Shown: positions 15,758-57,828 of the stretch, one piece after another
Position numbering within the stretch: position 1 is the first letter of the stretch
Layout of the letters: each line of letters starts with the position of its first letter
Notes under the pieces: model-generated
Told to the model about the DNA's origin: nothing
Seen by the model: the letters and a program-made list of their open reading frames with translations, nothing else
Database searches by the model: none
From: an uncultured Acidobacteriota bacterium
Lineage (GTDB): Bacteria; Acidobacteriota; Thermoanaerobaculia; Multivoradales; JAHEKO01
Length of the DNA stretch: 64,000 bases
Direction: 5' to 3'
Assembly: GCA_963713825.1 (NCBI GenBank)
Contig: CAVQNG010000003.1
Coordinates: forward strand, 1,536,001 to 1,600,000
Position numbers and translations under genes: made by a program

Positions 15758-15834
<77 letters not shown>

Positions 15835-17736: not shown

Positions 17737-18341
17737 GGCGTTCGGTCGTACCGCCCTCCCGTCCTGGGGCTTGGGCCCTGGGTCCTGCACAGAAGGCCAT
17801 CTTCGTGTAGAGCCCCATCCGGGTGGTCCGCAGGCTCTGCCCCGTCGATCTGAGCCGTTGGTCATTTGGGGGTCCGACGCGGGGCCCCCAGGGGGCTATC
17901 CTCCCTTCCACAGCAACCAACCCCCTGGAGGTCCCCACGCCGAACCCTCACACGTTGGAGAGACCTCGCACCGAGCTGTGGACTCCTGGGCCCTGTAGCC
18001 CGTAAGCCTGTACCGCCTCCTTTGGTGCTAGAGGTTCGTTCGGTTGGTTCGACAGGGGGGCTCTCGACCAGCGCAGCGCAGAAGCCGTCGAAGTGCACGA
18101 CAGATCTGGCGCGCCGGAGAGCGCAGGTGGCGGCCTGTCCGTCAAAGTCTGAGTAGCCGACCAAAGTCTGAGTAGCCGACGCCGTCCCCCTGCGAGCCAC
18201 CCGGACGGGCCTCTACGAGAAGAAGATCATCTGCCTGGGACGCAGGTCTCAAGTCCATGAGGGCCAGCCGAAGGTACGACGGCCACCTCAACCCCCACGC
18301 CCTCAAAGATCGTCCGGAAGCGACGCCCGGACGCCTCAACC
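17731..18341. repeat. Composite dispersed repeat between convergent ftsB and antiporter genes
   Basis: Bounded by GGTTGAGGCG/CGCCTCAACC. Contains an inverted 3'-arm copy (~17779-17834), a hairpin (17870-17947), the full core (18030-18214) and TCAACC hairpin units. Confidence 0.85.
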
Positions 18342-19775
18342 TGCTTTCTTGCGCTCTCCGCGCGCCAAGGTGACCTTGAGCACGGGTGGAGTCATCAGGG
18401 TGGTGACGATGACCATGATGACCACCGCAGAAAAGATGGCCGACGAGATGACTGGTCGGCCGTGAAGCACGAGGCTGGCGCCGATACCCGCGAAGATGAG
18501 ACCGACTTCGCCTCGCGGCACCATGCCGACAGCCACCGAGATTCGATCGAGCCCTTTTTCCAAGACACCGAAGGCGCAAACCATCTTGCCGATGATGGCC
18601 GCGACCGAGAGCAGCGCGGCAAAGCCCAGAACGCCCTTCTCACCAAAGGTCGAGAGATCGACCTTGATTCCCATCAAGACGAAGAAGACCGGAACCAGGA
18701 AGGTTGTGATGGGATGGATGAGCTCCTCCAATTGGTGTTCACCGCGGTTGAGAAAGTCCTGGAAGTGCGCATCTTCGAGGATTAGGCCTGCCGCGAACGC
18801 GCCGACGATCGGAGCCAGCTCGATGACATTGGCCAGGTAGGCAAGAAGAAAGCAGAAGGAGAGTGAAATCGTCAGCAGGAGGCCGCGAATCTGGAGCCGA
18901 CTGAAGACTCTGAAGAGTCGAGGCGAGAGCCAGCCTCCAAGGAGGATGGCTCCGACGAGAAACCCGGCCGCCTTGAGAACGATCAGCAGTACGTCCATGC
19001 TGGCCAGGGTGCCGCCAGTGTTCGCGGCGCTAATGACGCCGGAGACGACGGCCAGAATTACCAATCCGAGAACGTCGTCGATGACCGCCGCGCCGAGAAT
19101 GATCTTCGACTCGCGGGTCGTCACCTTGCCGAGATCGGTCAGGACCCTGGCGGTGATTCCGACGCTGGTGGCGCAGAGGGTGGCGCCAATAAAGAGATGC
19201 ACTAGAAGTTCTTCCTGGGGCAGAAACCAAGCCGACACTCCCCAGCCCAGAAAAAAGGGAGCCACGACACCGAGGATGGCAACGAGGAGGCTGGAAGCAC
19301 CGACAGAGAGCATTTCGCCGATATTGGATTCGAGTCCAACCTCGAAGAGCAGCAGGATGACGCCAATCTCAGCCAGAATAGCGATGCCCTCATTGGTGCC
19401 CAGAAATTCGAAACTCGTCACTCCGAGCAGAGCGAGGTTCCCGATCACGACACCGGCCACCAGCTCGCCCAGAACTGCCGGTTGATGGAATCGTTCAGCC
19501 AGCTCACCACCGATCTTGGCGGCGACGAGGATGATCACCAGCCCGAGGAGTACTGGAGTGACGGGGCTCGCATGACCGGCATGGGAGCCTTCGTCTGAGG
19601 AACCGTGAAAGGCCTGGTCGTCTCCCGCGCTGCGGCTCTCGGCCTCGTGGCTCTCCGCAGCGGCCGTCTCGTCCTTTTCAGCCTCCTGACTGCCAGTCGC
19701 CCAGAGCCCAGTGACTGGCCCGAGAAGGACACTAAGGATTGCGATGAGTAGACCCGCTGGAATTAGACGTCGCAT
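18336..19775 (-). CDS. Cation:proton antiporter (CPA2, NapA-like)
   Basis: Many TMs; LLFEVGLE, ATSVGIT, AAVIDDVLG, PRGEVGLI. Confidence 0.93.
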   Translation of the reverse strand: MRRLIPAGLLIAILSVLLGPVTGLWATGSQEAEKDETAAAESHEAESRSAGDDQAFHGSSDEGSHAGHASPVTPVLLGLVIILVAAKIGGELAERFHQPAVLGELVAGVVIGNLALLGVTSFEFLGTNEGIAILAEIGVILLLFEVGLESNIGEMLSVGASSLLVAILGVVAPFFLGWGVSAWFLPQEELLVHLFIGATLCATSVGITARVLTDLGKVTTRESKIILGAAVIDDVLGLVILAVVSGVISAANTGGTLASMDVLLIVLKAAGFLVGAILLGGWLSPRLFRVFSRLQIRGLLLTISLSFCFLLAYLANVIELAPIVGAFAAGLILEDAHFQDFLNRGEHQLEELIHPITTFLVPVFFVLMGIKVDLSTFGEKGVLGFAALLSVAAIIGKMVCAFGVLEKGLDRISVAVGMVPRGEVGLIFAGIGASLVLHGRPVISSAIFSAVVIMVIVTTLMTPPVLKVTLARGERKKAG

Positions 19776-47473: not shown

Positions 47474-49476
47474 CCCGGTCGAATGACGCTGACGCCGAGC
47501 TGGACCGGGTGGCTCCGGAGGTGAGGGAGGGCATTCGCCTGGTGCCGGTCGTTCACGAGCGCATCGAGCTGGCCAGTGTGGCGCGAGGAGTCTTGGAGGC
47601 TGTGGAACCGGCGGCGGTAGCCGTTGAGCTGCCGACGACCCTCCGAGAGGCCGCAGCCCGGGCCGTCGGGAGGTTACCGTTGATTTCTCTGGTGATCTCG
47701 GAGGAACCGGGGGAAGAAGCGCTGGTGTGGGTCGTGGCGCCCGGTGACCCCCTGGTGGAGGCCATCCGGTGGGCACTCGATCACCAGAGGCCCTTCCTCT
47801 GTATCGACCCCGATCTCTCCTACGAGGAACGACACGCCGACCGGGTTCCAGACCCTCACGCTCTGTGGCAAATGGGCGTCGGCGACTATCTCCAGAGCCT
47901 GCGACAGGGTCTGCGCAGCGGTGGAGTGTCCGCAGTGGATGATCGCCGAGAAGCAGGAATGGCCTTTCATTTGCGACAGGCGCAGGAAGAGATCGCGGCA
48001 CCGATCGTGGCATTCGTCGGGGCGGCCCACCTGGAGGGCGTCCGATCTCGGCTCGATGGACCACTGGCACACCCGTTCGCACGGACCCAGCGCAGCCGGG
48101 TTCTGGTGCGGCACCTGGCTCCCGACAGTCTCACGGCATTGCTGCCAGACGCTCCGTTGGCACACGCCGTCTGGGAGCGGGTCCGAGAGGGTCAGGCTCC
48201 CACTGACGCGGAGCTCGGATCCACCCTCTCGCGGCGCCAGTCTGTGGTGCGCTTCGGTCTTCGTGTTATCCATGGGGAGCGGGGAAGCGACGAAGCTGAT
48301 CGGAGCGAGAGGCTCGTGGACTATGCCAGCAAGCACGGCACCCGAGAGGGCTTCGGTGGCGGAGTCGCTCCGGACAGGGCCCGGCTTGGCGGTGTTGTCT
48401 GGCGGATCGCGGCAGGATCGTACACCGAGCAGACCGGGGAGACCGTGGCCGCCTGGCAGAGGAGACTGTTCTTCGACTTTTCGAGGCGCTGTGCCAGGGT
48501 ACAAGGCAATCTGATGCCAGGTCTCTACGAATGGGTGATCGCGGGACGGGGTGTCGGTGATGACAACCTGGCCTGGGAGATCTTCGATGTCTCTCGAACC
48601 TTCCCTTGGCAAGAAGACCAGGCGGAGATCGAGACCGTTTCCGTCGATGGAGAGGAACTGGATCTCGGCACTCGCAAGCTAAGGTTTCGGCGCCGTTTCC
48701 TGCGCGTCAAGCAGCGGCCCGTTGCCATCCCCGTTCGGGAGCACCCTCATCCCGACAGCCCGGAGGATTGGTTGCGGGCTTTCGATTCGACCGGCCTTTG
48801 CTCCTATCCTCCCGAAGACCTGGTGATCGAGGACTACGGGCGTTTTCTGCAGCAGAAGGCCCTGTCGGTGCTGTCAGCCGAACGCAAGAGGACCGAGCCC
48901 TTCGTTTGTAGCCTGTTGGACGGGATCGACATCCGAGAGACACTCCGCAATGTCCATGAGGACCGGATCTATGTGGAGGAGAAGGGCCGAGTGCCGGGAG
49001 ATGCGGGTTCGGTCGTCGTCGTCTTCGACCGCGACGTGGACAACGAGCGCTACCCCTTTGCCATGACCTGGCTGGGGGAGCATGATCAGGAGTCGGACAT
49101 GGCGTTCTATGCCACGAATCCGGCAGATCAGGTGGTGGGTCCCGGCATGATGCGGGCCACCTACGGCGGGTTCGTGCTGACCCAACCGAGAGGCAGGCTG
49201 TCCGACGTCTGGTCGGATCCGGACTATCGATTCGCCCGCAGCAGGGCGGAGATCTTGCTGATGGCGGCTATCGACTACAGCCTCGAGAAGATCGTGGTGC
49301 ATCTGGCCTCAGACCCTCCCGTCGAGAGACTGCGCCAGTACGCCGCCGTCCAGGGCAAGCAGATCCTCCACATTCCCCTAGCCTCGCTGTCTCCCGTGAC
49401 ACTCAAGAAGATCCGTGTCATGCACATCCTCGCCGGCCACGACAAGCGCGCCATGGCCAAGGACTACATCTGGTGA
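47470..49476 (+). CDS. TraB/Tiki-like domain protein, partner of the AAA+ ATPase
   Basis: VVH..., AVAVELP, RREAGMA, VGAAHL motifs; C-terminal GIDIRETLR; GTGA overlap with the ATPase gene. Confidence 0.7.
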   Translation: MTRSNDADAELDRVAPEVREGIRLVPVVHERIELASVARGVLEAVEPAAVAVELPTTLREAAARAVGRLPLISLVISEEPGEEALVWVVAPGDPLVEAIRWALDHQRPFLCIDPDLSYEERHADRVPDPHALWQMGVGDYLQSLRQGLRSGGVSAVDDRREAGMAFHLRQAQEEIAAPIVAFVGAAHLEGVRSRLDGPLAHPFARTQRSRVLVRHLAPDSLTALLPDAPLAHAVWERVREGQAPTDAELGSTLSRRQSVVRFGLRVIHGERGSDEADRSERLVDYASKHGTREGFGGGVAPDRARLGGVVWRIAAGSYTEQTGETVAAWQRRLFFDFSRRCARVQGNLMPGLYEWVIAGRGVGDDNLAWEIFDVSRTFPWQEDQAEIETVSVDGEELDLGTRKLRFRRRFLRVKQRPVAIPVREHPHPDSPEDWLRAFDSTGLCSYPPEDLVIEDYGRFLQQKALSVLSAERKRTEPFVCSLLDGIDIRETLRNVHEDRIYVEEKGRVPGDAGSVVVVFDRDVDNERYPFAMTWLGEHDQESDMAFYATNPADQVVGPGMMRATYGGFVLTQPRGRLSDVWSDPDYRFARSRAEILLMAAIDYSLEKIVVHLASDPPVERLRQYAAVQGKQILHIPLASLSPVTLKKIRVMHILAGHDKRAMAKDYIW

Positions 49477-49478
49477 TT

Positions 49479-49950
49479 GGGGGGTTGAGGCATCCGGTGC
49501 GTTGCACCGGCTGATCCTTGAAGGCTTGGGGGTTGAGCCGGCAGCACTTCGTGTCGGCCGTTCTTTGAGGGCCTGGGGGTTGAGACGGCCGATCGGACCA
49601 GGGATCTCCCCCGTCTGCGGTCTCACCCGACCATGCCCCTCCGACGAGGGAGACCCATGGCCCGATCTACCACCTTCGACACACATCAATCATCGGATTG
49701 CTGACTCACTCCCTACGCCCTTAAGCCCCTACTACCCTCACCGGTGCCAGAGGTTCGCGCGGGTGGTTCGACAGGGGGCGCCGAGTCGAGCGCAGCGCAA
49801 GGGCCACGATAGAGCACCACCAATGGGGCGCGATGACGAGACGATGTGGCGGCCCCCCATTGCAGTCTGAGTCGCCGACACCGTCCGCCTGCGGACCACC
49901 CGAACGGACCTCCACGCGATGATAGTCGCCAGTTCAGGACCCAAGCCCCA
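49479..49950 (+). repeat. Composite dispersed repeat (GGGGGTTGAG hairpin units plus 165-nt core)
   Basis: Near-colinear with the reverse complement of 57490-57820 apart from a central insert; core at 49749-49913. Confidence 0.9.
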
Positions 49951-49996
49951 AAGATCAGCTGGAAGGGACGCCCGGCTGCTTCAGCCAGTTGAGCTT

Positions 49997-50758
49997 TCAG
50001 CTCAACTGGCCGTAGTAGACGTGCGTGTCGTACTCGATGTTGACGTGATCGTCGACTTCGTGGGCTTCGAAAATTTCGCGCAGGGCTCGCAGCATGTCCG
50101 TATGGCGAGGATGATTCGGACCAGGGGTGTAGGAAGACGACAGGAGGCGTGCCTTCAAACCGTCGAAACGGAAGCTCTGGTGGTTGTCGAAGGCGGCGGT
50201 TGCATAGGTCTCACTGCCGTAGAAGGCCTGAATCTCCTTGGATCCGATCCGAGTGTGATCCACCTTTTCGTAGTCGGTTCCGTAGGCCAATAGCAACTCT
50301 TCGTAGGCTTGCAGAAATGGGCTACCCAGCTTTCTGCGATCGTTCCAGATGAGAACCACCCATCCTCGAGGCCGCAAGATTCTGGCGAACTCGCGGCGTG
50401 CCGCCTTGGCGTCGAACCAATGGTAGGCCTGGCCGGCCGCAATCAGGTCAGCGGAATCGTCGGGCAGCCCAGTGTCTTCGGCGGTGCCGTCGAGGCTGGC
50501 GAAGAGGCGGTAGGTTGCCAGCAAGGCCTCCCCGGCGCGCCGCATTTCGACGTTGGGCTCCACCCCATAGACTCGACAACCGTTGTCCAGGAAGAGTCGG
50601 CTCAGAATTCCGGTTCCAGAGCCGATGTCGGCCACGGCCCATCCCGGTGTGAGGCCGCATTCGACTTTCAAGAGCTCTGCGACTTCCTGTGGGTAGGCGG
50701 GCCGGGAGCGGACATAGCTCTCGACACGCCGGCCGAATCGATCTGCTGGTTTCGTCAT
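49997..50758 (-). CDS. Class I SAM-dependent methyltransferase
   Basis: DIGSGTG, GVEPN, GTAEDTGL, QAYHWFD, RILRPRG. Confidence 0.92.
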   Translation of the reverse strand: MTKPADRFGRRVESYVRSRPAYPQEVAELLKVECGLTPGWAVADIGSGTGILSRLFLDNGCRVYGVEPNVEMRRAGEALLATYRLFASLDGTAEDTGLPDDSADLIAAGQAYHWFDAKAARREFARILRPRGWVVLIWNDRRKLGSPFLQAYEELLLAYGTDYEKVDHTRIGSKEIQAFYGSETYATAAFDNHQSFRFDGLKARLLSSSYTPGPNHPRHTDMLRALREIFEAHEVDDHVNIEYDTHVYYGQLS

Positions 50759-57489: not shown

Positions 57490-57820
57490 CCGTAGAGGTC
57501 CGTCCGGGCGGCCCGCCGGGGGACGGCGTCGGCTACTCAGACTGCAACGGGGGGCCGCCACCTCGTCTCGTCATCGCGCCCCGTCTCCTGTGCTCTATCA
57601 AGGACCTTGCGCAGCGCTCGACTCGGCGCCCCCTGTCGAACCACCCGAACGAACCTCTGACACCAACAGGGGCATAAGGGCTTAGGGCAGTAGGGGCGTA
57701 AGTGGTGTGGATCGGCTGCTCCCTCGAGCCCCAAAGGGCGGCCGACACGGAGTGCGGCCGGTTCAACCCCCAAGCCCTCAAGGATCGTCCGGAGGTACGA
57801 CCGGACGCCTCAACCCCCAA
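57490..57820 (-). repeat. Composite dispersed repeat (inverted relative to the 49479 copy)
   Basis: Core at 57494-57658; TCAACCCCC units at 57763 and 57810. Confidence 0.9.
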
Positions 57821-57828
57821 AGGACCGA

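Follow-up and report, generated by a model that had tools for sequence, protein, structure and literature searches.

The window analysed here, a stretch of 64,000 nucleotides (nt) covering positions 1536001-1600000 of contig C3 of a metagenome-assembled genome (MAG), belongs to an uncultured bacterium of the Thermoanaerobaculia, phylum Acidobacteriota, and contains three full copies of an intergenic element of about 165 nt, here labelled E165. The same element recurs throughout the host genome (G000; 5,419,041 bases in 38 contigs, 61.3% G+C, 96%-complete). With moderate confidence, E165 is interpreted as a non-autonomous mobile intergenic repeat, in the sense of the MITEs (transposable elements of the miniature inverted-repeat type) and of the REPINs, which would spread via a folded single-stranded DNA (ssDNA) intermediate. 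The family is native to one lineage of uncultured Thermoanaerobaculia.

A first-pass annotation, made from the window alone, had flagged one copy and listed two others, along with two partial 3'-arm copies. All are present, and are given below together with the scores of a covariance model, R1, built from a 43-copy alignment spanning six congeneric genomes.

49749-49913, plus strand: full copy of E165, the flagged one, with a closing stem (P1), a junction and the inner helices P2/P2b and P3; R1, 167.8 bits
18030-18214, plus strand: full copy from the subfamily with type II inner sequence; 19 nt in the P3 loop region are duplicated in tandem; R1, 153.7 bits
57494-57658, minus strand: full copy located between maf (minus strand) and a convergent open reading frame (ORF; plus strand); R1, 179.1 bits
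13067-13098, plus strand: solo 3'-arm fragment; nhmmer E 2.9e-5
17779-17834, minus strand: remnant composed of a 3' arm and of a flanking repeat, module D, in inverted orientation; repeat depth about 25-30, weak nhmmer match over 17811-17834, E 0.26

The two units of the duplication, also reported by the annotation, are 18143-18161 and 18162-18180. The solo fragment was recovered by nhmmer, and the remnant is recognized mainly by its repeat depth in the genome. When aligned, the three full copies have a mean column identity of 80%, and the G+C content of the element is 67-71%. The limits originally set at 165 nt proved too narrow, as a GGTGCC adjoins the 5' end, with each of the six bases kept in 58-65 of 72 copies, and the 3' end is followed by a YACRAGA-like tail.

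Iterated nhmmer searches detected 94 matches in G000 at E <= 0.001, of which 76 are near full length, i.e. extending from profile position 5 or lower to position 160 or higher; the multi-copy nature of the element is thus far above chance. Copies are spread over 10 contigs, in both orientations, beside housekeeping genes such as eno, argS and maf. Contig C1 (414,271 bases) contains no match, versus about 7 expected from the density in the genome, and may represent a replicon of its own, a region of recent acquisition or an artefact of binning.

The plus strand of the flagged copy folds at -84.6 kcal/mol (z = -3.85 relative to shuffled sequences), the reverse strand at -81.4 kcal/mol (z = -2.49). 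The fold consists of a closing stem of 21-27 bp, ending in a junction with two or three short inner helices, and both folding and alignments agree with the pairing of the 5' and 3' arms over about 30 nt that had been proposed. Helices P1 (21 pairs), P2 (31-35 with 89-95) and P3 (97-103 with 129-135) are supported, and a GCGC/GCGC helix that does not vary, with tandem G·A at its flanks, was read by eye from the alignment. A different inner helix, described by the annotation as changing in a compensatory way (AATGGGG/CCCCATT and its variants), suits only two of the window copies. In an alignment-independent test, for which 92 of 106 copies from the genus could be parsed, segments of this helix were as complementary to those of other copies as to their own partners (mean longest run 4.36 for own versus 4.18 for other segments, p = 0.12), and the helix was rejected.

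In the six-genome alignment (43 copies), 41 pairs are defined; at pair 31/96, for example, U-A is found in 18 copies, C-G in 17 and G-C in 8, and the pair is never broken. A cross-genus alignment of 42 sequences, fitted to the model, which favours structure, and containing related sequences, which inflate its figures, gave pairing in 94.2% of cells versus 38-51% with slid partners, changes on both sides in 39 of 41 pairs, and a covariation score of 0.656 versus 0.08-0.12 for slid partners and 0.18 for shuffled ones, the observed value being reached by none of 500 shuffles. The covariation effect is very large nonetheless. An earlier all-against-all column scan was too permissive, in that any U column 'pairs' with any R column, and was used only for pairs 33/102 and 34/101. 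Besides P1, the inner helices P2 and P3 covary as well. A conserved core with covarying helices is found in at least 5 genera: the sequence of the closing stem differs in other genera and its pairing is kept, and the junction motifs CGAGCGC, GGCGCGA, GAGG, AGUC and CCGU are kept across genera. The short segments that the annotation had singled out as conserved are indeed so, both within the genus and between genera.

Covariation of the arms is also expected for inverted repeats bound by a transposase, and for this reason the strand asymmetry of the pairs is the decisive feature. In the 66 copies of 160-168 nt, scored on the RNAalifold structure, stem pairs are Watson-Crick in 2,113 instances, G·U in 411, A·C in 15 and other in 33. 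The A/G differences opposite T noticed in the 3' arm are real, as seen in these counts. Sequences from other genera (33 rows) show 65 G·U versus 15 A·C. The top strand is the stabler one in 59 of the 66 copies with RNA parameters and in 64 with DNA parameters, and in R1 scores the given strand exceeds the reverse strand at the same loci by about 150 bits.

The variants were further split by the number of copies that share them, in 64 G000 paralogues obtained after dropping two segmental duplicates (43 column-variants). Among singleton variants, G·U is found 7 times and A·C 13 times; among variants common to 2-3 copies the counts are 10 and 1, and among variants found in at least 4 copies, taken together with consensus pairs, 12 and 0. 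Variants common to at least two paralogues thus amount to 22 G·U versus a single A·C (6 versus 0 as consensus pairs, 16 versus 1 as non-consensus variants). The difference between the last class (12 versus 0) and variants in at most 3 copies (17 versus 14) has a Fisher p of 0.004, and the same trend is found in the 106 copies of the genus. Private A·C mismatches are tolerated and shared ones are nearly absent; resident copies therefore decay freely, and only lineages able to pair gave rise to further copies. This variant pattern is the signature of selection at the copying step, and private mismatches speak against strong selection on each resident copy.

The asymmetry of G·U and A·C, the stability of the strand and the cross-genus covariation support the earlier suggestion that folding as a single strand is the selected feature. 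In the process that would best fit these observations, new copies would be made from a single-stranded form of the top strand, which would have to fold in order to be recognized by a protein acting in trans. They would land mainly in the repeat-filled space between convergent genes and then decay neutrally, and landed copies may incidentally form a strong hairpin in read-through transcripts. The intermediate is taken as ssDNA, as in the IS200/IS605 and REPIN-RAYT systems, rather than RNA, because no reverse transcriptase and no sense bias were detected, and because in several genera the upstream flanks differ between copies, with no shared promoter. Among the alternatives listed by the first-pass annotation, a ssDNA-mobilised element is accordingly the better fit; its heading, a candidate novel RNA motif, is less supported, because the excess of G·U sits in propagated variants, no sense bias exists and orthologous sites differ.

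These differences were seen by comparing the three window loci with those of five congeners. At the locus of the flagged copy, G002 has a repeat-free spacer of about 16 nt, G003 carries E165 and module D in the opposite orientation, and G004 and G001 retain 3'-arm remnants only. At the maf locus, no E165 is found in G003 and G004, and the copy of G002 is inverted and nearer to maf. The locus at 18030 contains no E165 in G003 and an inverted one in G002. The sequencing runs listed for the locus are DNA runs of sediment metagenomes, with no RNA run among them; contigs of four runs over 48900-50500 are short and break in the repeats, none (Logan) bridging or skipping the element.

A search of the genome and its relatives, proposed by the annotation, was extended to the family and the class. 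By BLAST, E165 is multi-copy in 5/5 congeneric genomes and is found in 0/19 genomes of the other genera of the family. R1 gave multi-copy matches in 27 of 45 family genomes and in 12 of the 20 genera of the family; copies outside the genus are diverged versions, detected by the model where BLAST finds none. In a sample of the class, 6 of 121 genomes match, and G144 (7 matches) is the sole one outside the family, the other 115 having none. Genome G006, with no E165 match and 8 Y1 matches (see below), counts only in the family tallies. An exact-word scan of a species collection traced the element to MAGs with the title of either Thermoanaerobaculia bacterium or Acidobacteriota bacterium; four contigs of non-acidobacterial MAGs sharing an E165 18-mer contain no element by nhmmer, and were treated as chance matches. 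In low-copy genomes the neighbours are, by eye, ordinary genes, e.g. SDR-like and TonB-receptor-like frames. No repeat of this kind in Thermoanaerobaculia was found in the literature, within the limits of the library searched, and the family is regarded as undescribed, within those limits and those of Rfam 15.

E165 is not alone in its intergenic regions. Genes of the window include those for enolase, ArgS, Mfd, Maf and an acidobacterial-type VWA protein, and in the three intergenic regions that contain full copies, repeats of differing copy number take up all the space between the stop codons; E165 is one of them, with about 93 copies. The other repeats, termed modules A to D and 8-9-mers, are located as follows.

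49478-49589, plus strand: module C in two copies, a short hairpin repeat that resembles a REP (repetitive extragenic palindromic) sequence or a terminator, from 2 nt past the stop codon of the upstream gene; 194 nhmmer matches, terminator-like site at 49537-49558
49590-49705, plus strand: module A, a further repeat that has a hairpin of its own and lies upstream of many E165 copies; about 44 BLAST matches in the genome
49706-49748, plus strand: C-rich 8-9-mer tandem repeats ending in CGGTGCC, within the repeated unit; copy depth 65-86
49914-49952, plus strand: module D, a YACRAGA... tail followed by GGACCCA/AGCCCCA heptamers; depth about 30
17866-17950, plus strand: module B, an alternative upstream partner of E165; about 31 BLAST matches
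18262-18345, minus strand: two module C hairpins, oriented as terminators of a convergent CPA2-antiporter gene; from the repeat-depth profile
57659-57822, minus strand: 8-9-mer repeats plus a pair of module C hairpins, located 5' of the minus-strand copy and reaching the maf stop codon; from the repeat-depth profile

The degenerate 8-9-mers lie 5' of GGTGCC, upstream of most E165 copies, and module D follows roughly a third to a half of the E165 copies. Some features of these modules were noted in their own right. Module C (in the window at 49478-49589, 18262-18345 and 57727-57822) is a GC-rich hairpin of about 50-70 nt followed by a TCTTTGAGGG-like tail, and starts a few bases from stop codons in a terminator-like orientation; in tandem contexts 51 copies are sense and 29 antisense, and one copy passes a simple terminator scan. 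The 8-9-mers, of the CCCCTAAG and CCCCTACG types (49706-49748 and 57659-57700), have at least four GGGG runs 4-5 bases apart on the opposite strand, a pattern of predicted G-quadruplex type; the module also occurs alone, without E165, in G003 (L091). Modules A and B alternate upstream of E165, with inner hairpins TCTCCCTCGTC...GACGAGGGAGA and CCAGGGGG...CCCCCTGG, respectively, and the 3' end of module B (GAGAGACCTCG) resembles that of E165. A hairpin GGCCGGCAGGGNCGCCGGCC, followed by GCTTCA, is common to E165 flanks across genera (g12, g19, g5) and is also found downstream of some G000 copies; loci with hairpins of this type are L106, L111, L116, L121, L126 and L131 (G016), and L107, L104 and L132. 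It may be a family-wide terminator-like repeat.

Gene context bears on the possibility that E165 is a cis-acting RNA kept by the host, its top-strand fold terminating, insulating or stabilising transcripts at their 3' ends, as REP/BIME or ERIC sequences do. In counts that rest on a crude in-house ORF model (3,860 ORFs), the 76 full copies are located between convergent genes in 38 cases, between tandem genes in sense in 13 and in antisense in 13, between divergent genes in 10 and at contig ends in 2. Convergent spacers thus hold 38 of 74 copies, compared to 17.9% of intergenic regions (683/3,822; p = 7e-11), as such a role would lead one to expect. In addition, the element usually has its 3' end near the stop codon of a gene on the opposite strand, and the spacer at its 5' end is longer: in convergent cases, counted from tables, E165 is nearer to the downstream gene in 32/38 instances in G000 and in 14/16 in other genera. 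The very stable fold, the stems rich in G·U, the tandem G·A and the conserved junction are also RNA-like. However, tandem contexts reveal no sense bias, the two orientations being equally frequent in G000 and other genera having 7 sense versus 5 (+1) antisense copies, and the polarity of distances in G000 is explained by the co-repeated 5' modules. The G000 copies lie past the terminator-like module C hairpins of both flanking genes. Moreover, the tolerance of A·C is no lower than that of G·U among private variants (13 versus 7), and the orthologous sites of sister species are empty or inverted. A role of this kind is for these reasons held to be unlikely as the explanation of E165, even though a host-useful hairpin role between convergent genes may coexist with mobility; some functional RNA role is still conceivable.

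Less probable still is that the copies are independent genes for structured non-coding RNAs (protein-binding, ribozyme-like or regulatory), dispersed in many copies with their own promoters. Like Rfam families, E165 has a conserved core, covarying helices kept in at least 5 genera and a length of about 165 nt, and it is strand-specific. On the other hand no Rfam family reaches threshold, self-cleaving ribozymes and Acidobacteria motifs included, in agreement with the first-pass annotation, which had recognized no known family. An Rfam 15 scan of the window gave a tRNA gene (15761-15834, minus strand) as its sole match; around the flagged copy the best E-values were 2.1 and 2.9, far below gathering scores, and seven loci of other genera gave one unrelated weak match (E 0.12). 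No sigma-70-like promoter was found in the two loci scanned, and in several genera the copies do not share related upstream flanks. Related genomes differ in copy number, from 1 to over 90, and private mismatches are not purged. Finally, an element in which a 54-nt insertion takes the place of the conserved P3 loop is still copied.

This insertion defines a subfamily of about 206-214 nt, with a 54-nt palindromic insert in the P3 loop in 7/7 long copies inspected. Its ends are those of a full IS481-family insertion sequence (IS) located at the same position in one copy, and the occurrence of the insert at one site in all seven means that the composite of E165 and mini-IS itself multiplied. The intact IS481-family element, at C3:766599-767954 (L073, about 400-1755), lies in the P3 loop of an E165 copy; it encodes a 343-amino-acid (aa) rve/LZ_Tnp_IS481 transposase and has ends TGTAGGGGAGGGGC... 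and ...GGGGCTCCCCTACA. Fragments of IS481-family ends were also noted at C3:1521336-1521454 and C3:486830-486953.

Nested IS, intergenic sites and long terminal inverted repeats are typical of MITEs, according to a review (PMC3049150), and E165 arms, which pair over about 30 nt in all full copies, could be the terminal repeats of a double-stranded element moved in trans by a DDE transposase, with the strand asymmetry as a founder accident. Paired changes in the arms are also expected of co-evolving transposase binding sites. However, a duplex-level model predicts no skew such as that found in consensus pairs and shared variants, and the inner helices P2 and P3 covary too. The arms vary and the interior is conserved across genera, opposite to what is usual in MITEs; target-site duplications were not seen, and the only IS within a copy, the IS481-family one, has different termini of its own. 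The likeness to the Correia, ERIC and Nezha MITEs is in size (about 100-200 nt), terminal inverted repeats, copy number, intergenic location and IS nesting. MITEs are described in the same source as AT-rich, as making target-site duplications and as sharing terminal repeats with an IS (PMC3049150); E165 differs in its G+C of 67-71%, in the lack of a duplication and of a matching IS, and in its strand-specific mismatches. A double-strand MITE is accordingly considered very improbable.

Retro-mobility, in which the top strand would be transcribed, its folded RNA recognized by a reverse transcriptase and a copy re-inserted, would suit the RNA-like structure and the strand-specific selection at propagation, and is nevertheless the most improbable of the explanations, as the 96%-complete genome contains no match to RVT_1 (PF00078), for which control genomes responded, the two loci scanned have no conserved promoter, and the flanks show no poly-A or other hallmark of retro-insertion.

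The proposed spread of E165 through folded ssDNA has its own weak points. Searches of G000 found no mobilising enzyme for the element. TnpB (PF07282) gave no match in G000, and control genomes responded. No autonomous IS with E165-like termini was found, the sole IS joined to arms being the nested IS481-family element with its own TGTAGGGG... termini, nor did the nhmmer matches include other pairs of arms enclosing a gene. The domain search of G000 revealed four paralogous proteins of about 313 aa with a weak Y1_Tnp match (PF01797; IS200-like HUH) and a long C-terminal extension, encoded at C3:1031156-1032094, C3:1152157-1153095, C3:1296426-1297331 and C5:483000-483905. No repeat module lies within 1.5 kb of any of these genes. 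Of the 45 family genomes, 39 contain homologues, whether or not E165 is present, and the number of matches reaches 26 in one genome; G015 has 26 Y1 matches and no E165, and G045, which is 89% complete, has 11 E165 matches and no Y1. The domain search in five further genomes gave 1 match in G023, 2 in G058, 1 in G044, and none in G045 (89% complete) and G059 (81%). Neither flanks nor genome distribution therefore support Y1_Tnp as the mobiliser of E165; this gene family itself looks mobile or expanding.

In addition, transposition of IS200/IS605 type through ssDNA would predict a replication-strand bias, the folding strand being on the lagging-strand template, and none is found: the top strand is the leading one in 46 cases and the opposite in 43, as counted from the table of the six largest contigs, with partial matches included and replication direction derived from GC skew. 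Neither target-site duplications nor clean sites lacking E165 alone were seen in 76 G000 flanks, in 31 flanks from other genera and at the congener loci. With several helices meeting at a junction within 165 nt, conserved bases outside the pairs, tandem G·A and G·U in about 15% of pairs, E165 looks RNA-like, and its branched fold has less resemblance to the known HUH substrates, short hairpins. The numbers behind the contrast of private with propagated variants are small (43 column-variants); older variants have, moreover, been longer under selection, and slow purifying selection on resident copies retains some plausibility. All these points, along with the crude ORF model behind the context counts, weigh against the interpretation.

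Three genes of the IS110 family were noted in G000, one at C26:21361-22343 (L145 979-1962, minus strand; DEDD_Tnp_IS110 and Transposase_20) and two identical ones on C6 and C35. The gene on C26 lies about 200-280 nt from an E165 3' arm preceded by a 54-nt mini-IS end. A relation between IS110 and E165 of the bridge-RNA kind was considered and rejected, since R1 finds no E165 there and the arrangement is a nested insertion.

Comparison with known systems helps to place the element. At the ends of IS200/IS605 elements and of their miniature derivatives one specific strand folds, the fold rather than the duplex is the substrate, and no target-site duplication is made. E165 shares the strand-specific folding and the absence of a duplication with them, and differs in that known substrates are small subterminal hairpins at each end rather than one 165-nt junction, in the absence of TnpB from G000 and in the lack of a replication-orientation bias. 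It differs from integron attC sites in being dispersed, in both orientations, by housekeeping genes rather than in one-way cassette arrays; integrases were not searched for.

In behaviour, the nearest known analogues are the REPINs. These are short, non-coding, multi-copy elements forming long hairpins, the two sides of which often change in a compensatory way; by analogy with IS608 they have been proposed to move through an asymmetric ssDNA intermediate, and they persist for long in a lineage (PMC3116915). E165 resembles them in its hairpin, covariation, selection at copying, asymmetric tails (5' GGTGCC) and presence across a family-level clade, and compensatory hairpin change is indeed combined with within-genome copying in E165. 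A REPIN is composed of two inverted short REPs with a variable spacer, unlike E165, a single 165-nt unit with a three-branch fold, the interior of which is conserved and the arms of which vary. Furthermore, genes for REP-associated tyrosine transposases (RAYTs) are flanked by their own REPs, and the Y1_Tnp genes described above have no flanking modules and do not co-occur with E165.

The repeats of BOX, RUP and BIME type, including the BOX elements of pneumococcus and the BIMEs of enterobacteria, are made of modules in variable order, are in excess between convergent genes and have highly base-paired predicted structures (PMC3049150). Modules A, B, C and D, the 8-9-mers and E165 likewise form mosaics that fill intergenic space. 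There is no relation in sequence, and E165 is longer, branched and conserved across genera with covarying stems; its strand-specific G·U pattern has no counterpart reported for those repeats in the excerpts of PMC3049150.

A bolder reading, to which only a low probability is given, sees in E165 a new class of persistent single-strand replicator, in which the three-way-junction core would serve as the centre for recognition or catalysis in a mobilisation system that differs from those known. The core is kept in at least two Thermoanaerobaculia families as the closing stem drifts by compensatory change. The factor involved could be a new protein acting on a large folded ssDNA, or an active RNA, ribozyme-like or protein-recruiting, copied without a canonical reverse transcriptase.

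Interspersed hairpin repeats are common in bacteria, and for most of them the mechanism of spread and the relevance of the fold are not understood. E165 is an unusually clean natural experiment in this respect, since a single genome has about 90 paralogues and many genera have homologues. Inheritance of G·U by daughter copies, and not of A·C, allows selection during copying to be told apart from that on resident copies, and indicates that one strand is the active one. Drift in the arms and conservation of the interior reverse the usual order in MITEs, so that the junction core is a defined target for finding the mobilising factor. As no Logan contig spans the repeat region at the locus, a family covariance model would aid annotation and binning in this abundant uncultured sediment lineage, the intergenic regions of which are filled by repeats of the E165 type.

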